Positions 995-44,602 of a DNA stretch of 44,825 nt are shown one piece after another. The notes under the pieces were generated by a model. The model worked only from the letters and a program-made list of their open reading frames with translations, was not told where the DNA came from and did not search any database. The DNA is from Escherichia phage Gluttony_ev152, in the sequence record NC_073087.1; one strand, written 5' to 3'. Positions within the stretch are counted from its first letter, which is position 1, and each line of letters opens with the position of its first letter. The position numbers and the translations under genes were made by a program.

Positions 995-1452
995 GTGAAT
1001 TTTGCAACGTTTATTGAGTAAATTTTCGGGACCAAATCACCACACGCCCGACGAATTGCCGCGATGTTCTTCGGACAGTCTTCAATGATGACCAGTTCCG
1101 ACACGTCCGCATAGCAGACCATTTTGAAAACGGCGCACGCCTTAAACTCAGGCGGCGGGGTGTCGTCCAGCATGTGGCGCATGAACAATCGACCTACGGG
1201 GAAGACCTCCAATTGCTCGGCGGTGGTGTCCCAACATTCGCGCTGCCGGTTGGTCAGATACGCGATCTCGAAGCCTTGCTCTTTGTACATGCGCAGCAGC
1301 GGCAGCATATCCATGTTCAGATCTTCGCGGACGTGCGCTTTGTGCCACTTCGCCCAGAAGGTTGATTTCGTTTTTATCCCCGGCACCAGGTCGGCACGCG
1401 CATCGCTTGAGCCGTTAATAACGCCATCCAAATCGCAAATCAGTAATTTCAT
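982..1452 (-). CDS. HAD-superfamily hydrolase/phosphatase-like protein
   Basis: N-terminal LICDLDGV (DxDGV-type HAD motif I) in 156-aa track ORF; co-oriented with replication module. Confidence 0.7.
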   Translation of the reverse strand: MKLLICDLDGVINGSSDARADLVPGIKTKSTFWAKWHKAHVREDLNMDMLPLLRMYKEQGFEIAYLTNRQRECWDTTAEQLEVFPVGRLFMRHMLDDTPPPEFKACAVFKMVCYADVSELVIIEDCPKNIAAIRRACGDLVPKIYSINVAKFTCNQ

Positions 1453-1673
1453 TTTAAACTCTCAATAAGGGTGTAACGGGCGCTTCGCGCAGTAAAGGAG
1501 TTGCACACGAAATGGCAACGCTGAGTCATGACAAGCCAACCGGTGAGGTCAAGGCCCAGGATGTATTCGGGGCGAGACGCGCGCACCACACGATTGCGTC
1601 GCGGGTCAATACCGTAGTCTTTTTGCATTTGGTCTACTACCGCGGGGTCGCGGTCAACGATTAAGATATTCAA
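1449..1673 (-). CDS. hypothetical protein (74 aa)
   Basis: Track ORF overlapping neighbours by a few nt in an operon-like arrangement; no motif recognised. Confidence 0.45.
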   Translation of the reverse strand: MNILIVDRDPAVVDQMQKDYGIDPRRNRVVRASRPEYILGLDLTGWLVMTQRCHFVCNSFTARSARYTLIESLK

Positions 1674-2139
1674 GGAGTTCTCCTTCGCTCATTATTTCAA
1701 TTTGTGCGCTGCCGATGGGCGGCGCTTCGTCAAATATTATCAATTGCTGGCATTTGTTATTGCTCGGCCCGACTTCACCGGTGACGGCGTGAATGAATCT
1801 AATCCGCCAGTCCAGAAGAATTATCAGGTTTGCAGTCTTCCGGGCCAGCCTCGCCCACTTCGTCGACGTGTCCTGATTCAGCAGCATGACAGTCCGGCGT
1901 CCGTGCGCTGCGCACTCTACCCACGGCAGCGGATCGGAATACGGCGGATTGCACCACTTCCACCCTTTCAACTCGGACCAGTCCACATCAAGCGCGCTGT
2001 GTTCCGCCGTGAAGTAACGCGGTAGCAGGTGGTTTGCATCGCTTGCCGCCATATCGTAACGGAATCGGTACTTCCGACGAAGCGGTTTAAATAAAGCTGG
2101 CGGCGTGCGCCAGCTATCTTTTTGCTCACTCTTCTGCAT
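1654..2139 (-). CDS. DNA N6-adenine methyltransferase (phage Dam family)
   Basis: DSWRTP near N-terminus and NPPYS catalytic motif, hallmark of phage Dam-type MTases; 161 aa. Confidence 0.8.
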   Translation of the reverse strand: MQKSEQKDSWRTPPALFKPLRRKYRFRYDMAASDANHLLPRYFTAEHSALDVDWSELKGWKWCNPPYSDPLPWVECAAHGRRTVMLLNQDTSTKWARLARKTANLIILLDWRIRFIHAVTGEVGPSNNKCQQLIIFDEAPPIGSAQIEIMSEGELLEYLNR

Positions 2140-2584
2140 GATCTGGGTCTATCGCATACAGGGCAATTTTCTTGTCGCTGGACAGAACGCGCCGGACTCG
2201 GGCCATATCCGCCGGACCCAGCGGTCGGCCATCGGAATAGTAGCTGCCGTTCGCACGCCACGCTATCAGCACCAGGTCTTTCCGGTCGATCTTAGACTGG
2301 CGGCCCTTCGGGCGCACGTACGCCTCGGCCCGTTTGCAATGCTCGCGCAAACCTTCGGCTGTGAGTCGATTTAGTGCGACGGTGGTTGTGTACCCGGTGC
2401 GCTGCATAATACCCATCAACTCATACAGCAGATCGAAGCGCTCCTCTAATTCCTTGCGCGCCTTCTCCTCGCCTTCATAGCTCGCCAGGTAGGTGTCTGC
2501 CAGCGCGCTAACACGTTCGACCTGTTCGCGGGCTTCGAGGCATTGCGCGGCCCAGTAATTTTTCTCTTCTTGTAAAATTTTCAT
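2126..2584 (-). CDS. hypothetical protein (152 aa)
   Basis: Track ORF, tight coupling with flanking minus-strand genes. Confidence 0.55.
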   Translation of the reverse strand: MKILQEEKNYWAAQCLEAREQVERVSALADTYLASYEGEEKARKELEERFDLLYELMGIMQRTGYTTTVALNRLTAEGLREHCKRAEAYVRPKGRQSKIDRKDLVLIAWRANGSYYSDGRPLGPADMARVRRVLSSDKKIALYAIDPDHAEE

Positions 2585-3231: not shown

Positions 3232-3938
3232 TTTAAATTTTCCTCATTGACCGCTATCGCGAAGCCGCGCGGGGTGAGCGACCGGATTAATTTTGTGCGT
3301 GCTGATTTGCCTCCGAGGCGACTATACTGCTTCGAGTACCCTTTTTCAACGAAAACAGGTTTCTTCTCTGGCATACGGAAGCCGTTGCCGGTCCATAAGC
3401 AGGTCAGCTTCGGATATGAATCGCGGGCGTTGATGTATTCCGGGAAGAGCGGGTGTACGTCATCCTCCGGCAGATATCCCCCATACTCCCACGGGTCGAA
3501 TGAGTGATCCGGCTTGCGCCACTGGGTGGAAAGCACACTGCGCGGATTCTCAATCATATATGGCACTTCGAAGAAGTCACCCAGGTAAGCGGCGATCTTC
3601 GCGGTGCGCACCGCCTTAAGCTGAAAGGCTGGGTCTTTAGCTCGCTTGCGCGGGAAAGCGGGCGCACCGCTCACTGCCAGATCCGTGCACGGAGGAAACG
3701 CATAGATGATATCTGGCGTACCGAAATCGCCATTCATCGCACGGTCTACAAAGTCCAGATCGATAAACTCATTGCGATACCGGATTCCGCGACCATAAAT
3801 CCGGTAGTCAAGGTAAGACCCGTGGTCGGCTTCGGAGTAGTTGAAGCAATAACACTTATGCCCCATCTCGGCAGCACGCTCAATCATCAAGCCGCTGCCG
3901 TCAAACAATGACCAGATTGTCATTTTAGCAATAGTCAT
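3228..3938 (-). CDS. putative DNA methyltransferase (C5-cytosine-like)
   Basis: LFDGSG (SAM-binding FxGxG-like) and FPPCTDLAVSG (PC catalytic-type motif) plus ENPR; 236 aa is short for a canonical C5-MTase, so the assignment is tentative. Confidence 0.5.
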   Translation of the reverse strand: MTIAKMTIWSLFDGSGLMIERAAEMGHKCYCFNYSEADHGSYLDYRIYGRGIRYRNEFIDLDFVDRAMNGDFGTPDIIYAFPPCTDLAVSGAPAFPRKRAKDPAFQLKAVRTAKIAAYLGDFFEVPYMIENPRSVLSTQWRKPDHSFDPWEYGGYLPEDDVHPLFPEYINARDSYPKLTCLWTGNGFRMPEKKPVFVEKGYSKQYSRLGGKSARTKLIRSLTPRGFAIAVNEENLK

Positions 3939-8634: not shown

Positions 8635-9438
8635 TTAACGGCGGCGACGTTTGCGTGGTGCTTCGTCTTCGTCGTCGTCCTCATCTTCGTCATCGCGTGG
8701 CTTACGACGTTTGCGAGGTTTTTCATCTTCCTCATCGTCGTCGTCATCGCGGCGCTTGGATTTCTTGGACTTGCGCGGCTTGTCATCTTCATCATCGTCA
8801 TCACGACGTTTTGACTTCTTAGCCTTGCGCGGTGCTTCGTCTTCGTCGTCGTTGTCCAGGTCTTCATCGGAGCAAGAAGACCCGCCACCGCCGAAGGCTT
8901 CACCGTCATCACGGAAGCGTAAACCCAGCAAGCCAGCGCCGAGTCCCTTGCCGTTGGTGTTGTTCCACGCCCAAATATCAAGGGACACGTTGCAATAACA
9001 ACCAGAGTAGATCTCCTGGCCTTCAATCTCGTCGCCGTCTATGGTCAGACCTTGTTCAGTCTGCTTCTCGCCGAGTGACGTTTGAATGATTGGTTGTTTG
9101 AACGATTTGGCGTTGATATACAACATGCCTTCGAATTCTTCGGTTACTTCATCGCGCTCGTCGCCGTCGCGAACTGCACATTCCTTAGAATCCTGGGCGT
9201 AGTGGCGGTCCATCCACTTATCGGCATTCTTCTCGGATTTCAGCTTATCGGTGAGCACTGCGCGCGCTGCCGCTTCCACTTTGTCCACCTGCGGATCTTC
9301 TTTATCCAGAAGAATCACGGCACGGTATGCCGGTTTTTGTCCATCCTGTTTAGGGGTATCACGTTCCCAAATTTTCAGGAAGCATACGCGCACATTTTTC
9401 AGGTTGACTTTAGCCATTTTCCAATTCCTCATTTTCAC
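8635..9438 (-). CDS. DUF2815-like phage single-stranded DNA-binding protein with charge-block repeat tail
   Basis: Position between polymerase and Cas4-like nuclease as in DUF2815/DUF2800 replication modules; C-terminal 90 aa of alternating poly-acidic and poly-basic blocks; sigma70-like promoter upstream (9483-9511). Confidence 0.6.
   Translation of the reverse strand: MKMRNWKMAKVNLKNVRVCFLKIWERDTPKQDGQKPAYRAVILLDKEDPQVDKVEAAARAVLTDKLKSEKNADKWMDRHYAQDSKECAVRDGDERDEVTEEFEGMLYINAKSFKQPIIQTSLGEKQTEQGLTIDGDEIEGQEIYSGCYCNVSLDIWAWNNTNGKGLGAGLLGLRFRDDGEAFGGGGSSCSDEDLDNDDEDEAPRKAKKSKRRDDDDEDDKPRKSKKSKRRDDDDDEEDEKPRKRRKPRDDEDEDDDEDEAPRKRRRR
8640..8870 (-). repeat. low-complexity GA/GAC-type repeats encoding acidic/basic tail of SSB-like protein
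   Basis: Reiterated TTCGTCTTCGTCGTC and GCGTGGCTT/GCGCGGCTT units on forward strand. Confidence 0.5.
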
Positions 9439-11661: not shown

Positions 11662-12180
11662 TTAATCTTCCAGTTCGAAATAGGTTTCGACGATTTCTTT
11701 TAGCTCTTTGTGGAAGTCTTCGACGTCGTCATCTTCCAGCTTGGCGATTGATTTGATCTCGAACGATTCCAGCAGGTCGTCGAATTCGTCGTTCGCATCG
11801 TCGTCGTCACCACCGGCGATAATCGCGGCATACTGTTTGATCTCGTCGCGCATCTCTGCCAGCGGATCGGCATCTTTCTTACCTTTGCCTTTCGCCGGTG
11901 CTTTTTTAGACTTAGCCGGTTTTTCGTCTTCGGCGTCTTCGTCGTCGTCATCTTCTACGACTTCTTTTTTGGCCTTACCCTTCGCCGGTGCTTTTTTAGC
12001 TTTAGCCGGTTTTTCGTCTTCGGCGTCATCGTCGTCATCTTCGACAACTTCTTTTTTGGCCTTAGACGGCTTCTTGTCTTCCTGTTTACCAACGGCAGCG
12101 CCAACGGTTTCATAATGTTTAGCGATGGTTTCCAGTGCTACTACGCCGCGAGTGATCAGGTTTACGATTTGCTCAAACAT
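11662..12180 (-). CDS. acidic/basic charge-block repeat protein
   Basis: ATG at 12180 with GGAGATATACC upstream; two tandem 31-aa repeats KKEVVEDDDDDAEDEKPAKAKKAPAKGKAKK; first gene after the leftward promoter. Confidence 0.6.
   Translation of the reverse strand: MFEQIVNLITRGVVALETIAKHYETVGAAVGKQEDKKPSKAKKEVVEDDDDDAEDEKPAKAKKAPAKGKAKKEVVEDDDDEDAEDEKPAKSKKAPAKGKGKKDADPLAEMRDEIKQYAAIIAGGDDDDANDEFDDLLESFEIKSIAKLEDDDVEDFHKELKEIVETYFELED
11880..12070 (-). repeat. tandem repeat of about 93 nt in charge-block protein gene
   Basis: Two near-identical units (CCTTCGCCGGTGCTTTTTTAG...TTCTTTTTTGGCC), each encoding one 31-aa repeat. Confidence 0.6.
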
Positions 12181-12583: not shown

Positions 12584-12913
12584 ATGAATGTAAACGACGC
12601 AATCGAAATGTTAACGAAGACTGTTTGCAGTGAGACAAGCCGGTCATGGGCATACACCGATGCCGTGGGGGCTGTGTTATTTGAAATCGAACGACTGCGG
12701 CTTACCGAAAAAGAATTGCGCGCCAGGCTGGAACTACTCAACGGTACAGCAGCAAGCAAGCTGCAAAAACACAATGAAGAAATGGAAGAATACAAAAAGC
12801 AGGTTATCCGTTTGCGCGCCGAGGGCAAATCTTGGGCGATGATTGCCGAGTTGACCGGAATTAATCAGAGCACAGTGCGCTCCTGGGTACGCAATAATAA
12901 AACTTCTAAGTAA
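12584..12913 (+). CDS. helix-turn-helix DNA-binding protein (putative regulator)
   Basis: C-terminal GKSWAMIAELTGINQSTVRSWV resembles resolvase/sigma-region-4-type HTH; first rightward gene after divergent promoter. Confidence 0.65.
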   Translation: MNVNDAIEMLTKTVCSETSRSWAYTDAVGAVLFEIERLRLTEKELRARLELLNGTAASKLQKHNEEMEEYKKQVIRLRAEGKSWAMIAELTGINQSTVRSWVRNNKTSK

Positions 12914-15188: not shown

Positions 15189-15265
15189 ATCCTGCGCGCA
15201 TTGGTTGCCGATATGGGAATTCCCATATCGCTAAAAGGTTAAATTTTGCGCGCATTGGTTGCCAT
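15189..15265. promoter_or_regulatory. direct repeat - 20-bp perfect palindrome - direct repeat, candidate protein-binding or origin element
   Basis: TGCGCGCATTGGTTGCC twice flanking GATATGGGAATTCCCATATC, immediately after primase/helicase stop. Confidence 0.4.
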
Positions 15266-15348
15266 TTTGAGTGTTTTTATCAGGTCGTATTGGTTGCCGT
15301 GTAGTGTGAATATAGTGAATAGTTATGCAGTTTTGTTGCATAAAGTAA

Positions 15349-15510
15349 GCGGGACAAAAAGCGGGACAAACAAGGGGCGGGACAAAGCGGGACAGCACCC
15401 CCGTCCCGCCCCTGATGGCGCGGCCTGGAGAGGAGCGGGACAGGCGGGACAACCCCCAGTCTTTCAGACTAGACGGGGGTCAATGGCCCCCCTCGTCTGA
15501 GACTGAATAA
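15349..15510 (+). repeat. noncoding cassette A: GCGGGACA direct-repeat array plus conserved 53-nt element
   Basis: Six direct and one inverted copy of GCGGGACA(A/G) within about 100 bp, followed by AGTCTTTCAGACTAGACGGGGGTCAATGGCCCCCCTCGTCTGAGACTGAATAA (15458-15510). Confidence 0.7.
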
Positions 15511-15665
15511 AATCCGGGGATTGCAAAATACACGGCAGCATGATGCGAATTGCGGTCGACGATGAACTAGGCAACCAATGCGAGTTGCATTATGCTGAGT
15601 GAAAAATGCGGTTTGCAGTCGCAGCAGATAGCGATCAACTTTTTCATGCGCGTGATTAATATTGG

Positions 15666-15694
15666 TTGCGCCCAGCCTGGCACCTTGCTATATT
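15666..15694 (+). promoter_or_regulatory. promoter candidate, TTGCGC-N17-TATATT
   Basis: Hexamers with 17-nt spacer; ATTGGTTGC motif overlapping -35 and again immediately after -10; leader TATATTGGTTGCACACCAACATGAGGAC nearly identical to the leader at 26033-26061 on the minus strand. Confidence 0.55.
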
Positions 15695-15722
15695 GGTTGC
15701 ACACCAACATGAGGACTGAACA

Positions 15723-16028
15723 ATGAAAGCAATTATCTGGAATTACGCAATGGCGATGGCGAAGCTGTACGAAGCAAAACACACAAACGGCAACGCAGAC
15801 GACGCGCGCCAGGCTGTCATCCTGGCCCAGCAGGGAATCATGAACGCGTTCGACGATATGTTTGCCAGCCTGGACGAACTGGAACCTCTGCGCGTGGCAA
15901 TCTGCGAATATGCTATGGCATTTGCCCGTGAACGCCTGGCGTATCGCTTCGGGATCGGCGAGACGGCAGTGACAAACGTTGCCCGGATTAAAGCCCAGCG
16001 TGAGCTATTCGCCCAGCTTGCGAAATAA
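15723..16028 (+). CDS. hypothetical protein (101 aa)
   Basis: Track ORF with GAGGAC RBS and upstream TTGCGC-N17-TATATT promoter. Confidence 0.55.
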   Translation: MKAIIWNYAMAMAKLYEAKHTNGNADDARQAVILAQQGIMNAFDDMFASLDELEPLRVAICEYAMAFARERLAYRFGIGETAVTNVARIKAQRELFAQLAK

Positions 16029-16037
16029 GAGGCCAAA

Positions 16038-16307
16038 ATGACCCGTAGACGCGCAAAACAGCTTTCGTGGCATATCCCCCTGCATTGCATACGAATATGG
16101 GCTAAGAATGCGAATGAGGGGGATTCTGTATTCTGGTGCTATCGCGATGATGTGAAGCCGTTAACGCAGACTCGCTACTTGCACCAGTTCGCAGCAAAGC
16201 ACGGATTCTATGTGCGGACCTCCTTGCAACCAATGGGGATCCGTATTACATTACGCCGGAAGCCCGCCGTTGAGCGGGTAGGCAAACACTGGAGACTGAG
16301 AAAATGA
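16038..16307 (+). CDS. hypothetical protein (89 aa)
   Basis: Track ORF, tight spacing with neighbours. Confidence 0.5.
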   Translation: MTRRRAKQLSWHIPLHCIRIWAKNANEGDSVFWCYRDDVKPLTQTRYLHQFAAKHGFYVRTSLQPMGIRITLRRKPAVERVGKHWRLRK

Positions 16308-16852
16308 AATTACTATTCCGCCGCAACCACGACGGCTGTATCGTGGAGCCGGTCCAGGTAATGGCCTTGACTAAGAACGTGCTCCTATGCCACCAGGCAA
16401 GCGGCAAAGTATTCCGCACGCCAACCAGCACGCTGCCGCAGTTCTTCACAGTCCACACCCACGATATTGAGCGCGGCGATGTGCTGCGTGATATTCGCGA
16501 CGGGCAACTGTGGGTCGTCGAGTACACCTCCCAGCACGGCTTGCGTATGCAGACCCGCAAGGGCGGCGTAGTGGGTAACGTTCAGAGGGGTATGACCTAC
16601 TTCGGGCTAATCCACTTTGAGCGAGTGGGTCGCAAGTACAGCCTTCGCGACCGCCAGCCGCATGAGTGCGCTACTTACGACGCGACCCAGGTGCAATCTA
16701 AAATTCGCCGGGCCACGCGTGAGATAGTCAATCGCTTTGATGCCGTGACGAATGCGCAGCGCCATGCGCAGGAATACGGCGTTGGATTCATCCGGGTAGA
16801 ACGAGACGGCAGCATGAACGCCATTGACCCGCGCTCGGTGATTCTGAAATGA
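16304..16852 (+). CDS. hypothetical protein (182 aa)
   Basis: Track ORF with ATGA start overlap to upstream gene. Confidence 0.55.
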   Translation: MKLLFRRNHDGCIVEPVQVMALTKNVLLCHQASGKVFRTPTSTLPQFFTVHTHDIERGDVLRDIRDGQLWVVEYTSQHGLRMQTRKGGVVGNVQRGMTYFGLIHFERVGRKYSLRDRQPHECATYDATQVQSKIRRATREIVNRFDAVTNAQRHAQEYGVGFIRVERDGSMNAIDPRSVILK

Positions 16853-16989
16853 GTGCGGCTATCCGTGATATGCTGATGCACAACCGCTTTGAGATCGGCG
16901 GTCGGGTGTTTCGTAACTACTTCGTGGCGCGTGCCTGGGCGCGCCATATTGGCAAACCAGAGGGGGCAATACGATGCTACACGATTTGA
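16849..16989 (+). CDS. small hypothetical protein (46 aa)
   Basis: ATG overlapping stop of upstream gene (ATGA); not in track (below 60 aa); begins MSAAIRDMLMHNRF. Confidence 0.3.
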   Translation: MSAAIRDMLMHNRFEIGGRVFRNYFVARAWARHIGKPEGAIRCYTI

Positions 16990-17261
16990 TATATTGGTTT
17001 GGATTGGGGTGCGCGACACTCTTTGCTACGGTGCTGGCGCTGTTGGTATGGGTATTCCTGATTTGGCCCGCCGTAGAAGCTGCCAGCATTACCCGGATGA
17101 CGTTCCAGATATACAAGCGCCGGGGCATCACGGAGCACCCTACCAGGTTGCGCATGTGGTGGCTATGGTATCGGGATATGATAGGGGGCAGGATGTTCGA
17201 GGCCGTCCGATCGGAAGGGTGGGAGTGGAAAGGCGTCGGCAAGTGGTCAATTTTCGATTAA
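16974..17261 (+). CDS. small membrane protein
   Basis: 95 aa with long hydrophobic N-terminal helix LGCATLFATVLALLVWVFLIW. Confidence 0.45.
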   Translation: MLHDLIYWFGLGCATLFATVLALLVWVFLIWPAVEAASITRMTFQIYKRRGITEHPTRLRMWWLWYRDMIGGRMFEAVRSEGWEWKGVGKWSIFD

Positions 17262-17312
17262 TTATGCAAGCGTGATATAGTCCCAGTGAGATAAACTTAC
17301 TGGGACTTTTTT

Positions 17313-17603
17313 ATGGATAAGCTAAACGAGTGGTTATTCGCCCTCGCATGTCTGGCTGGCGGCTTCGTAGGCGCACGCATTCACGGCGAGGCTACGAAGG
17401 GGCCATTAAACTTCGTTTTATATATCGTGGTAGGCTTTCTGTGTGCCATATTTGGTGCGCCAGCTATTGCCGAGTGGGCTGGCTTATCTGGCGAGCGCAC
17501 TGTCGCCGGTTTGGGCTTCGTAACTGCAATCTTCTGGATGCCAATCGCCGACCGGATCAGGGAGACTATTGCGTCGTTCCGACTTCCGGGGGGTGCAAAA
17601 TGA
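17313..17603 (+). CDS. putative holin (multi-TM membrane protein)
   Basis: 96 aa with about 3 hydrophobic helices, immediately upstream of the endolysin. Confidence 0.5.
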   Translation: MDKLNEWLFALACLAGGFVGARIHGEATKGPLNFVLYIVVGFLCAIFGAPAIAEWAGLSGERTVAGLGFVTAIFWMPIADRIRETIASFRLPGGAK

Positions 17604-17845
17604 TTATCTCCGTCCTGTTGTTTGTTATCATAGGGGCTTCGTCCCTGTTTAACGTGTATGCGCCGTCCGTACAGGATGGCATTTTAGGCCGGGTGCTGTA
17701 TCTGTTAACGGCAATGGTCTGTATTATCGGATTGTTGCAAACAGGAGACGTATCTGACACCACCTGGACCGCGTTAATCTGGCTGTTTGCATTGCGCACG
17801 CTGCGTAATGCTGTTTTGAATGGGGTAAAACATGCGATTCAGTGA
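17600..17845 (+). CDS. putative holin/antiholin-like membrane protein
   Basis: In-frame ATG at 17600 (ATGA overlap with upstream gene) within track ORF 17330..17845; 81 aa with about 3 hydrophobic helices; overlaps endolysin start. Confidence 0.45.
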   Translation: MIISVLLFVIIGASSLFNVYAPSVQDGILGRVLYLLTAMVCIIGLLQTGDVSDTTWTALIWLFALRTLRNAVLNGVKHAIQ

Positions 17846-18759: not shown

Positions 18760-18786
18760 AAGCCCGGTTAATTCCGGGCTTTTTAT
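18760..18786 (+). terminator. intrinsic terminator
   Basis: GCCCGGTTAATTCCGGGC hairpin followed by TTTTTAT after Ig-like gene. Confidence 0.65.
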
Positions 18787-20146: not shown

Positions 20147-20181
20147 AGCCACCCAGCCTGCCGATTTGGTGGGCTTTTTTG
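20147..20181 (+). terminator. intrinsic terminator
   Basis: GCCACCCA...TTGGTGGGC hairpin followed by TTTTTT after phosphoesterase gene. Confidence 0.55.
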
Positions 20182-25268: not shown

Positions 25269-26033
25269 TTAGCGAGGAATGCCGCAAATCTCGTTGAGTG
25301 TTTTCACATCCAGCGCCACCGCCGTGGATTTTGGCTTGTCCGGGTAAGGGATGAATTGCTCAACTTCAGGCCATGCCTTGATCAGCTTCTTATCGGTATT
25401 GTGCATATCCAGCACGCCGGTAACAGTTAGTTTGAACGCGTCATACTTAGCTCGCAACTCGCGTCGGGCCTTGTCGTTACGGTCCAGGCGCTTGCAGAAA
25501 TCATGATCCGCCGGAAAATCAGCACGGCAGCGGGGCTTATAGATCGGCAGCGCTTTCCCATCCTCGTCCAATTCGCACACAGAAGCCAGCATAACTTCTT
25601 CGTACCCAGGCACAATATCGCCGAGATCGGGAGACAGCTTATTCATGTATTTATATTCCCAGTATCCGCGATGTACGCGGTATCGGAGACCGTCACCGCT
25701 CAAGGACAAGGTGCGAACATTTCCTCCTGCGTTGATTTCGAAAGTGGCGTCGTAAACTCGGTCGATACCTTTTGGGCGGTCGTGGTTATAGTAATACGTC
25801 GCCTTGTTGGTGTAGACGCTTACGCCGTACATCTGCGACTTGTCGTCGTGGATTAACTGTATATGCTCGCGTAGCGCGGCGAACGTGCGAATGCCTTTTG
25901 GCATACAGTCCATCGTAATTGCGTACGCCAGGTCGCGAGAGTCCATCATGATGGATTTGGCTTCGGTCGCGATTTCGTGGTCGCGCAGGATGTTAGCCAG
26001 AATCTGGTTTTTAATGTCTTTCGTCAGTCTCAT
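25269..26033 (-). CDS. hypothetical protein, reverse-oriented moron candidate
   Basis: 254-aa product from internal ATG with GAGGA RBS; own minus-strand promoter TTGCAA-N18-TATATT (26056-26085); lies between rightward spanin terminator and rightward scaffold gene. Confidence 0.55.
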   Translation of the reverse strand: MRLTKDIKNQILANILRDHEIATEAKSIMMDSRDLAYAITMDCMPKGIRTFAALREHIQLIHDDKSQMYGVSVYTNKATYYYNHDRPKGIDRVYDATFEINAGGNVRTLSLSGDGLRYRVHRGYWEYKYMNKLSPDLGDIVPGYEEVMLASVCELDEDGKALPIYKPRCRADFPADHDFCKRLDRNDKARRELRAKYDAFKLTVTGVLDMHNTDKKLIKAWPEVEQFIPYPDKPKSTAVALDVKTLNEICGIPR

Positions 26034-26055
26034 TTGTGTGTCCTCATGGTTGGTG

Positions 26056-26085
26056 TGCAACCAATATAGTGCAACCAATATGCGG
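26056..26085 (-). promoter_or_regulatory. promoter candidate for reverse-oriented ORF, TTGCAA-N18-TATATT
   Basis: Minus-strand hexamers with TTGGTTGCAC abutting -10 and repeated after it; drives ORF 25269..26033. Confidence 0.55.
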
Positions 26086-26182
26086 ATTGCAAGCGAATTT
26101 TGCGATTATTTTTATCACTGATAATATTAGAAGCGTGAAGTCGAGCGGGAGGCCTGCTCTGCCACAATCCCAGGGGGATAGC

Positions 26183-30933: not shown

Positions 30934-30959
30934 ATGGGGCCAGCACGGCCCCTTTTTTA
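30934..30959 (+). terminator. intrinsic terminator
   Basis: GGGGCCAGCACGGCCCC plus TTTTTT after major tail gene. Confidence 0.65.
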
Positions 30960-31655: not shown

Positions 31656-31973
31656 GCGGGACAAAACGGGACGTCCCGTTTTGTCCCACCCCTGTGAAAC
31701 TGCATACCTACTCACTTCCATTGCATAATCTAAAAGCGGGACAAGCGGGACGTCCCGTTTTGTCCCACCCCACAAAAGTGCATACGTATTCGGTTTTCGT
31801 GCATAAAACAAACGGGACAAAAAGCGGGACAAACACTAGGCGGGACAAAGCGGGACAGCACCCCGTCCCCGCCAGTGCTGCCGCGGTTTTCAGCCGATCG
31901 GGACAGCGGGACAGCACCCCAGTCTTTCAGACTAGACGGGGGTCAACGGCCCCCCTCGTCTGAGACTGAATAA
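31656..31973 (+). repeat. noncoding cassette B: GGGACA repeat array with two 30-bp palindromes plus conserved 53-nt element
   Basis: Perfect palindrome GGGACAAAACGGGACGTCCCGTTTTGTCCC (31658-31687), near-copy at 31738-31766, about 10 direct GCGGGACA copies, then the same 53-nt element as cassette A with one substitution (31921-31973). Confidence 0.7.
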
Positions 31974-42190: not shown

Positions 42191-44602
42191 ATGGCAGCGG
42201 GTACGCTATCCGTAACGAACAATAGCAAGGCGGTAGTAGGGGTCGGCACCACGTTTACCGCGTTTAAAGCTGGCGACTTCTTAACGTTGGTGGTAGGACA
42301 AGTCCCATACACCGTGGCAATCGCGTCCATTGAAAGCGCAACCGCGCTTACGCTGGTGCTGCCGTTCGACGGCCCAACGGCAACCGGCCTTGCGTGGGAC
42401 GGCGTTAAGCGCGATACCATGTCACTGGCAACGATGGGCGTTACCGTACAGGCACAGAAAGCGTTGCGATTGATGATCGCAGATGAAAACAACTGGCGCG
42501 CTATCTTCGGCGAAGAAGAAGAAATCTCGGTCACGCTACCGAACGGTCAAGTGGTGCAGGGTATGTCGTGGGGCTACCTGTCAAAACTGCTTAAAGACGT
42601 AGATCCTGTTGAATTGCAGGCTATCGCGGACCAGACCATCACGGCTAAAAACCAGGCGCAAGGATTCCGTAACGAGGCGGAAGGCTTCAAGAACACCGCG
42701 AATACCGCGAAAGATGCCGCAGTAGCTGCGAAGACAGCGGCGGAGACAGCTAAGTCGCAGGCCGTAACCGCTAAAGCGAAGACAGCGGCGGAGACAGCTA
42801 AGTCGCAGGCCGTAACCGCTAAAGACCAGGCCAAAGGATTTCGCGACGAGGCTGAAGGCTTCGCCAACAGCGCGGACGCGTCAAAGAAAGTGCCGTATGC
42901 TGGCGTAACATTACCGGCACCGACTGGAGTAAGGGATATGCTCAAGCGGTTGCGCGATTCGGTTAAGGGCGGCTTCTGGCGCGTCGATGATATTGCGCAG
43001 TTTCCATCTGGCGAGATGACCCCTTTCAGATACGGACCTGGCGTATGTGGCGGCGCGGGGGATACATTCTTTGCAATCAACGTTGACTGGCAAACCTCGC
43101 GCGTTAAAGTTTTCTCGGGAAACAACAACGCGATCAACGGTGCGTCGGGAAGTGTTAGCGCTATCGAACTGGCTAAGCTGGGGGCTAACGGGGACGTGGC
43201 GATCGGGGACGGCGGGACCGGTGCATCGAACGACCAGGGCGCGAGAAAAAACCTTCAGGCAATGCACGAGCGACAGGCATCGTTGGATACTGAAGATCTT
43301 AACGTCCTTCAGGGTGATAAGGCTGGGTTTTATTATCAGTCCCTGTCGGCTAACGCCACCCCCGAACGTAACTATCCTATTAACCAGGCGGGTTGTTTAC
43401 TGGTGCAAAGATCCGGTGCTAACGATCCGAAAAGCTGCATACAAACGTACACCTCATACCTTAACGGTCGGCGCTGGATTCGATGGCTGAGCAACGCGAC
43501 TACTGGCACTTGGTCCCAATGGTACGAATTATATAACGCAGGGTCGTCGCCGACTTTTTCTGGAGTAATTACTGGATCTGCGGTGCGCGCTTCCGTTGAC
43601 GGAAAGATCATAACTATTAAACCTGGCGTCAATGATGTAGTTATTCACAACTCGGCATCTAATAAATTTTTGCAATTAAAGGACGATGGCGGTCTTTCGT
43701 ATGACAACAAGCTGATCGCGTATAACGGCCTTGCCGCCAGTGGCACATTTGCTATGACCGTCCCTAGCATTAAAGTTACAACAGCCAATGGCGGATTTCG
43801 TATCGACGGAACAACGTCGACAAACAACCAGCCACTTCACGTAACAGGCTACAACTCCGCAGGCACGCGTCTTTGGTTTTTAGGGAAGGACACCGGGACG
43901 AACGCGCTATTCCTGAACGATGTTACATCGTCTAAGGTTGAGCTGATCACAGACGGCGTTGTGCTTGGTACAAAGAATTTTGCGGGCAAGGCATACGTCC
44001 AGGCCGCAAGTTTAGAGATCGACCGACCGAGCGGCAAGTATTTCAAAATGCAGAACGACGGCACCTCGTCGCACCCTGCAACCTTCAAATTATGGGGTAA
44101 CGGGTCTGAGAGGGCGTCGGTTATTGAGTGTGGTTTTGATAACGGCCCTGGGTGGGTGTTTTACGCGCAATATAACAGCAACGGCACGCGCCAGATGAAC
44201 GTTAACGGTACGGTAAACTGCACGACGGTAAACCAGTCGTCTGACCGCGAGTTGAAGGATAACATCAAGCCGATCGAGAACGCTCGCGCGGGCCTTGCTA
44301 AGATGGGCGGTTATACCTACACCCTGAAAAAAGACGGTATGCCGTACGCCGGGGTGATTGCACAGGAAGTAATGGACGTTGTGCCGGAAGCGGTGAGCAC
44401 GTTCGAAGACTACGAACACCTTGCGGGGCCAACGCAAGACGGCGAGGAACTGGTAGGGCGTCAGCGCTTCTTCCAGGTGGACTACGGCGCTATTGCGGCG
44501 TACGCGGTGCAAGTGTGTAAAGAACAGGAAGAGGAACTGGTGTCATTACGCAGCGAACTGGAGGAATTAAAAGCTGCCGTAGCGGCACTGACTAAAGCAT
44601 AA
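42191..44602 (+). CDS. tail fiber protein with C-terminal intramolecular chaperone (peptidase S74-like) domain
   Basis: 803 aa; C-terminus SDRELKDNIKPIENA ... GGYTYTLKKDG ... GVIAQEV ... QVDYGAIAAY ... coiled-coil matches the autoproteolytic chaperone domain of endosialidase and T5 L-shaped fiber type; internal 48-nt tandem duplication. Confidence 0.8.
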   Translation: MAAGTLSVTNNSKAVVGVGTTFTAFKAGDFLTLVVGQVPYTVAIASIESATALTLVLPFDGPTATGLAWDGVKRDTMSLATMGVTVQAQKALRLMIADENNWRAIFGEEEEISVTLPNGQVVQGMSWGYLSKLLKDVDPVELQAIADQTITAKNQAQGFRNEAEGFKNTANTAKDAAVAAKTAAETAKSQAVTAKAKTAAETAKSQAVTAKDQAKGFRDEAEGFANSADASKKVPYAGVTLPAPTGVRDMLKRLRDSVKGGFWRVDDIAQFPSGEMTPFRYGPGVCGGAGDTFFAINVDWQTSRVKVFSGNNNAINGASGSVSAIELAKLGANGDVAIGDGGTGASNDQGARKNLQAMHERQASLDTEDLNVLQGDKAGFYYQSLSANATPERNYPINQAGCLLVQRSGANDPKSCIQTYTSYLNGRRWIRWLSNATTGTWSQWYELYNAGSSPTFSGVITGSAVRASVDGKIITIKPGVNDVVIHNSASNKFLQLKDDGGLSYDNKLIAYNGLAASGTFAMTVPSIKVTTANGGFRIDGTTSTNNQPLHVTGYNSAGTRLWFLGKDTGTNALFLNDVTSSKVELITDGVVLGTKNFAGKAYVQAASLEIDRPSGKYFKMQNDGTSSHPATFKLWGNGSERASVIECGFDNGPGWVFYAQYNSNGTRQMNVNGTVNCTTVNQSSDRELKDNIKPIENARAGLAKMGGYTYTLKKDGMPYAGVIAQEVMDVVPEAVSTFEDYEHLAGPTQDGEELVGRQRFFQVDYGAIAAYAVQVCKEQEEELVSLRSELEELKAAVAALTKA
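42730..42825 (+). repeat. 48-nt tandem duplication inside tail fiber gene
   Basis: GAAGACAGCGGCGGAGACAGCTAAGTCGCAGGCCGTAACCGCTAAAG occurs twice back to back, encoding KTAAETAKSQAVTAK twice. Confidence 0.7.

Follow-up and report, generated by a model that had tools for sequence, protein, structure and literature searches.

What do five short genes, packed between the replication and lysis genes of a phage and deposited as hypothetical in more than 150 genomes, contribute to infection? The question is raised by Escherichia phage Gluttony_ev152 (NC_073087.1), whose sequence of 44,825 nucleotides (nt), referred to below as the window, carries at this position a row of genes for products of 101, 89, 182, 46 and 95 amino acids (aa). 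On the 5′ side the cluster is bordered by the gene for the replicative helicase-primase and a repeat-rich segment termed 'region B', and on the 3′ side by a lysis cassette of two holins and an endolysin that begins at position 17313. The answer that seems probable, though it is held with modest conviction, is that the five genes constitute one early/middle unit of genus-specific accessory genes for small binding proteins, which are neither structural nor lytic and are in part dispensable; this reading is inferential as to when the genes are expressed, whether their products act by binding and what, if anything, they target in the host. The window is a complete, HK578/SO-1-like Dhillonvirus genome. 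A megablast search with positions 15400-17700 retrieved 156 phage records, all from Dhillonvirus or Dhillonvirus-like siphophages, including HK578, SO-1, EP23, SSL-2009a and Bas14-18 of the BASEL collection, and in 82 of these records the match extends over 80% or more of the query, with an identity of 85-91%. The equivalents of the five genes in HK578 and SO-1 (Table 1) are all annotated as hypothetical, and so is P9641_gp25, to which the 182-aa product is 100% identical.

That the five open reading frames (ORFs) are real, coding genes follows from the purifying selection acting on them. Codon-level comparison with 18-19 related loci yielded median ratios of nonsynonymous to synonymous divergence (dN/dS) of 0.35 for the 101-aa gene, 0.20 for the 89-aa gene, 0.34 for the 182-aa gene, 0.06 for the 46-aa gene and 0.21 for the 95-aa gene; the flanking helicase-primase, holin and endolysin genes lie at 0.03-0.09. 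A 44-aa ORF immediately upstream is doubtful and, with a dN/dS of 0.56, gives the weakest coding signal of the region. Every one of the five has a full-length match to a PHROG of unknown function and is found in about 150-156 Dhillonvirus records. The sizes and positions given by a first-pass annotation of the window are borne out by the ORF list, and the tight coupling that it described can be read directly from the sequence: ATGA overlaps join the 89-aa to the 182-aa gene (16304-16307) and the 182-aa to the 46-aa gene (16849-16852), the 46-aa and 95-aa genes overlap by 16 nt, and the 101-aa gene is followed, after a 9-nt gap with a GAGG ribosome-binding site, by the 89-aa gene. Most starts are preceded by Shine-Dalgarno-like purine runs, and a third ATGA (15723-15726) couples the 101-aa gene to the doubtful ORF. 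The idea that some of these ORFs, above all that of 46 aa, are chance reading frames deserves almost no credence. The 46-aa ORF is indeed very short and is unannotated in SO-1, yet its dN/dS of 0.06 is accompanied by a synonymous divergence (dS) of 0.42 across 18 relatives, it is kept in 150 records at 80-100% identity (mostly 90-100%, with nine records at 80-90%), it has a PHROG family of its own with a full-length match, and its ATGA coupling persists in the 16 loci that carry no insertion at that junction.

The presence/absence comparison among related phages that the first-pass annotation had proposed proved informative. Across 19 loci, the proteins of the flanks (helicase-primase, holins, endolysin and phosphoesterase) are 92-100% identical to those of the window, with the helicase-primase of HK578 at 88%. 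The corresponding values within the cluster are 60-96% for the 101-aa protein, 75-96% for the 89-aa protein, 31-74% for the 182-aa protein, 91-100% for the 46-aa protein and 77-100% for the 95-aa protein, the last falling into two allele classes. The span from helicase to holin varies from 1726 to 2689 nt, and three gene junctions are indel hot-spots that gain and lose tiny ORFs; the inserts comprise tiny acidic peptides, a 62-aa ORF, a 59-aa ORF, a 33-aa hydrophobic peptide and a paralogue of the barrels of the 182-aa protein. In phage Teewinot, which was isolated on E. coli, a deletion (L019, locus 3371-3757) has removed the 46-aa gene completely and the 182-aa and 95-aa genes for the most part; the promoter-proximal 101-aa and 89-aa genes and the terminator-holin junction are retained. 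In the metagenomic protein P0266, the barrels of the 182-aa protein are fused in frame to the predicted cytoplasmic domain of the 95-aa protein, and the transmembrane segment is missing. Taken together, the Teewinot deletion and the P0266 fusion show that growth on E. coli does not require the 3′ half of the operon. The locus is an accessory or plasticity region: it is variable, bracketed by conserved genes, subject to gene gain and loss, and partly dispensable.

The predicted limits of the transcription unit coincide with those of the cluster. The first-pass annotation had placed the genes behind a 'cassette A' and a promoter, and both are found in this order: a 197-nt direct repeat (15314-15510), presumably the cassette meant, is followed by a predicted sigma70-like promoter, which continues into GAGGA and the ATG at 15723 and is kept in most relatives. 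Two copies of the 9-mer ATTGGTTGC overlap this promoter (15661-15669 and 15692-15700). Genome-wide, the 9-mer occurs 15 times where 0.59 occurrences are expected, and it has the appearance of an operator or promoter element recognized by some phage DNA-binding protein; one further copy precedes a Cor-like exclusion/membrane-protein pair. The copies are mostly intergenic or situated in promoter regions, and some are arranged as near-palindromes (GCAACCAAcctATTGGTTGC at about 972-992) or paired in tandem at distances of 14-31 nt. The promoter architecture, TTGC(A/G)(A/C), a spacer of 17/18 nt ending in TTGGTTGCAC, and TATA(T/G)T, also precedes two minus-strand genes. One is an early gene at 424-918; the other, preceded by this architecture at 26092-26063 (minus strand), is a 254-aa gene at 25269-26033 (phrog_1965, unknown function) that sits embedded in the structural (head-gene) region. 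The leader TATATTGGTTGCACACCAAC(C)ATGAGGAC is near-identical in front of the 101-aa gene (15685-15722, plus strand) and the 254-aa gene (26033-26092, minus strand), and these matching promoter-leader cassettes suggest that the two genes are co-regulated.

At the other end, a predicted intrinsic terminator with a hairpin of -22.6 kcal/mol (z = -6.5) ends one base ahead of the holin ATG. The 51-nt spacer between the stop codon of the 95-aa gene and the holin start, in which it lies, hardly varies among 11 distinct relatives. The 5′ arm of the terminator is overlapped by an extended -10-like element, TGATATAGT (17273-17281), which is invariant. A transcript starting at this element would lose the left arm of the hairpin and would thereby escape termination, so that TGATATAGT could be a late promoter nested within the terminator. 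No further copy of the element is present in the genome, and its candidacy as a recurring late-promoter consensus was therefore rejected. Further strong plus-strand intrinsic terminators lie between units of the late region, at 18760-18781 (bidirectional, after an Ig-domain gene), at 20155-20175 (after the phosphoesterase unit) and at 30936-30952 (after the major tail gene); this series would call for either several late promoters or an antitermination mechanism.

The fast-evolving 101-aa and 182-aa genes can be set apart from the conserved, basic 89-aa and 46-aa genes, and both of the former encode proteins in which variability is confined to patches. The 101-aa protein is modelled with confidence as a four-helix bundle whose ends are conserved and whose middle, residues 18-55, is hypervariable; pairwise identity averages 39% in this segment as compared with 71% and 81% at the ends, and the family comprises 118 clusters at 90% identity. 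The only trace of it in Pfam is a sub-threshold hit to HTH_Tnp_4 (E 0.099; 12.7 bits against a cut-off of 27), and a helix-turn-helix (HTH) DNA-binding motif was rejected because the confident model is a plain four-helix bundle, comparable to Rop-like and other antiparallel bundles. The 182-aa protein is modelled as two SH3/Tudor-like β-barrels (about residues 1-53 and 59-110), a variable, indel-rich linker, a long helix (127-158) and a β-hairpin. Its residues 8-50, 73-98 and 122-140 show a mean pairwise identity of 61-66% as against 86-95% for residues 1-7, 51-72, 99-121 and 141-182, and the family is split into 420 clusters at 90% identity. Its barrels were compared with Staphylococcus phage 37 ORF041 (PDB 2p84), with the RNA-polymerase-binding Tudor domains of CarD, Mfd-RID and UvrD-CTD, and with KOW and MazF/Kid.

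An exhaustive HMMER search of 1.84 billion representatives with the 182-aa profile returned 24 proteins, nearly all of them fragments or relatives of a single module, and the few remote matches are without an informative Pfam domain. Barrel-only paralogues are represented by P0281 and, in one relative (L010, 1268-1612), by a 114-aa ORF situated between the 89-aa and 182-aa genes, and P0278 and P0279 (62-87 aa) are stand-alone C-terminal modules with the signature …YGxGFxRxxxDGxxxRIDPxxV…. Since the remote relatives carry single parts, the 182-aa protein is evidently modular. The search for structural relatives that the first-pass annotation had called for was productive in part: folds could be assigned to the 101-aa and 182-aa proteins, but Foldseek against BFVD led back solely to the family of the 182-aa protein itself.

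Within the cluster, conservation is highest for the 89-aa and 46-aa genes. The 89-aa protein, with an isoelectric point (pI) of 11.4 and 20 lysines and arginines against five acidic residues, is encoded in 155 phage records, all Dhillonvirus-like, and its family falls into no more than 20 clusters at 90% identity, with full-length clusters that are 79% identical or more; some relatives carry a shorter homologue of 59-61 aa without the first 30 residues. The 46-aa protein (pI 10.8) is likewise restricted to Dhillonviruses. Judged by their composition, both probably bind nucleic acids.

Of the five, the 95-aa protein alone has relatives beyond the genus. A single transmembrane helix near its N-terminus (about residues 6-34; maximum of the 19-residue Kyte-Doolittle profile 2.48 at residues 16-34) is followed by a Trp/Arg-rich domain of some 60 aa, with nine tryptophans, that is predicted to be cytoplasmic by the positive-inside rule. 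Full-length homologues of 35-40% identity occur in Jerseyvirus (302 Salmonella phage records), in Peatvirus PEAT2 and in the Ackermannviridae phage Bue1, and the family shares the signature WPxVEAxSxxR…Y…GRxFE…W.GVG.W. In Jerseyvirus the homologue follows the lysis cassette and is found near 'NinH-like' ORFs and the small terminase; its neighbour is a Cas4-like nuclease in PEAT2 and dexA in Bue1. When the proteins of the region were compared by BLASTP with celemicas gp8-gp21, the sole match was that of the 95-aa protein to gp20 (39%, E 2e-21), and none matched the 'NinH' ORFs. An equivalence of the 46-aa ORF with the 'NinH' ORF that precedes the homologue in Jerseyvirus was therefore rejected. 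Among 185,579 bacterial and archaeal species genomes, one genome per species, the family has a single match, in an assembly scaffold of Taishania pollutisoli (Bacteroidota). This 19-kb scaffold (NZ_JACVEL010000022.1) is 99.4% identical to the Salmonella Jerseyvirus vB_SalS_JNS02, and a bacterial homologue was rejected since the contig is almost certainly a phage contaminant. With its only cellular match explained in this way, the family looks confined to virulent phages.

Table 1. Coordinates of the features at the helicase-to-holin locus and of the copies of the recurrent 9-mer in the window
Feature	Coordinates	Strand	Equivalents and remarks
Doubtful 44-aa ORF	15592..15726	+	HK578 gp48 region, phrog_23498; contains predicted promoter
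Predicted sigma70-like promoter	15666..15694	+	TTGCGC, 17-nt spacer, TATATT
101-aa gene	15723..16028	+	HK578 gp49 / SO-1 gp50, phrog_9839; ATG start
89-aa gene	16038..16307	+	HK578 gp50 / SO-1 gp51, phrog_12533; ATG start
182-aa gene	16304..16852	+	HK578 gp52 / SO-1 gp52, phrog_10243; ATG start
46-aa gene	16849..16989	+	HK578 gp53, phrog_13628; ATG start
95-aa gene	16974..17261	+	HK578 gp54 / SO-1 gp53, phrog_2531; ATG start
Predicted intrinsic terminator	17279..17312	+	12-bp stem, 5-nt loop, T6 run
ATTGGTTGC copies	984, 2882, 2899, 5856, 12384, 15200, 15254, 15289, 15571, 15661, 15692, 16226, 26057, 26071, 42167		

Comparison with characterized families agrees with the statement of the first-pass annotation that none of the five products belongs to a recognized family. 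Searches of Pfam, NCBIfam, PADLOC and PHROGs with six ORFs, the five genes and the 44-aa ORF, yielded only PHROGs of unknown function, and sequence searches of the PDB with four family profiles and the 46-aa protein returned nothing at E ≤0.7. Homology to conserved structural or lysis proteins, which the first-pass annotation had named as grounds for refuting its reading, was sought in PHROGs and Pfam and is absent: none of the five has a structural PHROG or Pfam match, and none matches a lysis PHROG, to which both holins and the endolysin match clearly. Proteomics of the related phage EE09 detected 24 phage proteins in lysates and four in infected cells, none of them from the cluster (PMC10673088), a negative result that carries correspondingly little weight. 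Relatives among anti-defence proteins were found for none of the five in the functional categories of PHROGs, in Pfam or in the PDB. The expectation of the first-pass annotation that such clusters frequently encode host-takeover or anti-defence proteins has thus come through the comparison with structural and lysis families and stays plausible, but positive evidence for it is lacking, as is any characterized anti-defence relative.

Two small Dhillonvirus genes, the only ones with immune-related roles in the literature searched, offer a more direct comparison. Anti-Tmn is ORF35 of phage SM_S22 (PMC11846954), and Ksap1 is the trigger of KpAvs2 in SECphi18 (PMC11564622). A 152-aa gene of the window (2126-2584, minus strand), whose family carries the label 'DNA ligase' in PHROGs, encodes a protein 81% identical to SM_S22 CDS0035 and is the best candidate for anti-Tmn, provided that the published ORF35 is CDS0035, as is probable. 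By position and length only, a 74-aa ORF at 1449-1673 (minus strand), between a methyltransferase and a kinase/phosphatase gene, is a candidate for Ksap1. The presence of either known gene inside the cluster was rejected since the best candidates for both lie on the minus strand, in the early region. Mutants of SECphi18 and HK578 that escape Retron-Eco8, Borvo, RAZR and OLD have been traced to SSB, the polymerase, the portal, gp43 and gp45-46.

How the favoured explanation would operate can be outlined in conditional terms. Transcription would start at the sigma70-like, host-type promoter, a member of the family with the ATTGGTTGC(AC) motif and of a class common to the phage's early genes and its embedded minus-strand genes, and would stop at the invariant terminator directly ahead of the holin gene; the position of this terminator would separate the unit temporally from lysis. 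The products would bind host macromolecules rather than act as enzymes, binding being the most likely mode since they are small and without a recognizable catalytic fold. The 101-aa bundle and the tandem barrels of the 182-aa protein would each present, on a conserved scaffold, hypervariable patches suited to tracking variable host targets or to escaping host sensors. The basic, conserved 89-aa and 46-aa proteins would bind nucleic acids. The 95-aa protein would be an inner-membrane anchor, exchanged horizontally among unrelated virulent phages, that might serve in membrane-level host interference or superinfection exclusion. For such an accessory host-interaction role, the indel hot-spots, the patchy diversification of two genes and the loss in Teewinot constitute circumstantial evidence.

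Likeness to better known systems lends this explanation some shape. The class I or 0.x genes of T7, the small early ORFs of T4 and the nin region of lambda likewise consist of short, packed and coupled ORFs with homologues only in a narrow phage group; these accessory regions, too, lie between conserved genes, show turnover of tiny ORFs at their junctions and are partly dispensable. In contrast to these comparators, the five proteins have no kinship, in sequence or in specific fold, to characterized takeover or anti-defence proteins. T4 Imm and Sp are small phage inner-membrane proteins of exclusion and interference, with which the 95-aa protein shares small size and a single membrane pass; it is likewise dispensable for plaque formation, being largely missing in Teewinot, and is spread across unrelated phages. 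Unlike Imm and Sp, with which no relationship in sequence was detected, it has a predicted mostly cytoplasmic topology and its own WPxVEAxS...GRxFE...GVGxW signature. Anti-Tmn and Ksap1 resemble the cluster genes in being small and Dhillonvirus-restricted, and interplay with host immunity is their only known role (PMC11846954, PMC11564622); they differ from the cluster genes in mapping to the minus-strand early region. Natural sequence variants of both alter the outcome of the interplay (PMC11846954, PMC11564622).

Several points weigh against the view of the cluster as an accessory unit of binding proteins. The literature searched (Dhillonvirus, SECphi18, HK578, Gluttony/Lust) holds no expression, interaction or phenotype data for the five genes, and promoter, terminator and expression timing of the unit are inferred from sequence. 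The fold matches are generic, an SH3/Tudor-like barrel and a helical bundle, and name no target. The dS of the 101-aa and 182-aa genes is raised to about 0.6, which suggests ancient allelic lineages reshuffled by recombination, a process that can mimic diversifying selection. Finally, the 89-aa and 46-aa genes are too conserved for participants in an arms race and are kept by nearly all Dhillonviruses; for these two, a core regulatory job fits better than an accessory one.

A more specific proposal, which is tentative and less likely than not, holds that the 182-aa protein, the 101-aa protein or both represent a new class of counter-defence or sensor-evasion factors. The scaffold would then be formed by barrel 2 and the C-terminal YGxGFxRVxxDGxMxxIDP module in the 182-aa protein and by helices 1, 3 and 4 in the 101-aa protein, and the variable patches (barrel 1 and linker; helix 2 and loop) would bind strain-variable immune proteins or targets of Tudor domains such as RNA polymerase. 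The separate genes for barrels and C-terminal modules would reflect conflict-driven domain shuffling, and the 95-aa membrane protein would possibly be a second, membrane-level inhibitor.

A core regulatory job for the most conserved members is the substance of the foremost, though rather unlikely, alternative, in which the cluster would be a module comparable to nin and Q of lambda. The early-to-late switch would be governed by DNA- or RNA-binding regulators, namely the 89-aa and 46-aa proteins and perhaps the 101-aa bundle; they would bind ATTGGTTGC(AC) operators (ATTGGTTGCAC sites) or modify RNA polymerase, and the switch would act across or around the plus-strand terminators ahead of the lysis, phosphoesterase and terminase units. 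The gene order is lambda-like, running from replication genes through small ORFs, terminator, holin and endolysin to terminase. The pI values of 11.4 and 10.8, the very low dN/dS of the 46-aa gene and the presence of both genes in nearly all Dhillonviruses, with the 89-aa gene kept even by Teewinot, would suit regulators of this kind. The same may be said of the 25-fold over-representation of the motif and its placement on promoter cores, the strong plus-strand terminators at 17279, 18760, 20155 and 30936, and the invariant extended -10-like element overlapping the first of these. However, HTH, Q, sigma and antiterminator families are unmatched at E up to 1, Teewinot, a phage isolated on E. 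coli, has no 46-aa gene, and the 89-aa homologues of many relatives are devoid of the basic N-terminal 30 residues. There is, moreover, another candidate DNA binder in the window, an HTH 'transposase-like' protein of 109 aa (12584-12913).

The location of the cluster lends itself to two further explanations. It lies immediately downstream of the helicase-primase gene and of iteron-like GCGGGACA and ATTGGTTGC repeats, three of its products are basic, and the 95-aa homologue adjoins nucleases in PEAT2 and Bue1; the genes could accordingly encode replication or recombination accessory factors that cooperate with the helicase-primase and the origin-like repeat region (15189-15720), for instance by binding the origin or loading the helicase. 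This is judged quite improbable, given that similarity to replication or recombination families is absent, that core replication factors are seldom hypervariable or naturally deleted, and that those HK578 escape mutants which point to replication affect gp43, gp45 and gp46 rather than gp49-54. The chances are no better, and if anything slightly poorer, for a role in lysis, according to which the lysis cassette would begin, at its 5′ end, with the cluster and the 95-aa protein would be an antiholin, a regulator of lysis timing or a spanin-like protein. Its single transmembrane helix, the spacer of only 51 nt to the holin start and the position of the Jerseyvirus homologue, within about 1.1 kb of a homologous lysis cassette, would agree with such a role. 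The strong, invariant terminator between the 95-aa gene and the holin gene argues against it, and so does the lack of a lysis PHROG match, which both holins and the endolysin do have. Synteny is not conserved, the contexts in PEAT2 and Bue1 being unrelated to lysis; the protein is lost in Teewinot and deprived of its transmembrane helix in the P0266 fusion; and the annotation of the related phage SM_S22 places a spanin at another site. On the grounds of terminator, synteny and natural loss, the assignment of the 95-aa protein as spanin or antiholin was rejected.

As it stands, the finding concerns an ordinary set of orphan genes in a genuine accessory region. The kind of locus is familiar, and what is new is descriptive: the boundaries of the operon, two structural models, the modularity of the 182-aa protein, a conservation map and the distribution of the 95-aa family. 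As common phages of E. coli, Dhillonviruses are represented in the BASEL collection, in defence studies (SECphi18, Bas14-18, HK578, Lust) and in therapy-oriented work. Anti-Tmn and Ksap1 belong to the minus-strand early region, and the helicase-to-holin locus, as the other plastic region of the genus, narrows the choice of the next candidates. A counter-defence or late-regulatory function, should one be established for any of its genes, would account for the differing host ranges of therapeutic phages that are nearly identical.

Apart from the cluster, the window contains several repeats. Rfam and transfer RNA scans of the whole window, the 197-nt repeats included, gave no matches. The 197-nt repeat, which is rich in GCGGGACA units and hairpins, has a second copy at 31777-31973 with 82% identity; the copy at 15314-15510, after the helicase-primase gene, corresponds to 'region B' of SO-1, and the other, just upstream of the tape-measure gene, to its 'region A'. 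A perfect 48-nt tandem duplication (42728-42823) lies within an 803-aa tail-fibre-like gene, and GTC/GTCGTC-rich repeats in two early genes (8651-8869 and 11768-12058) encode acidic D/E tracts on the minus strand.

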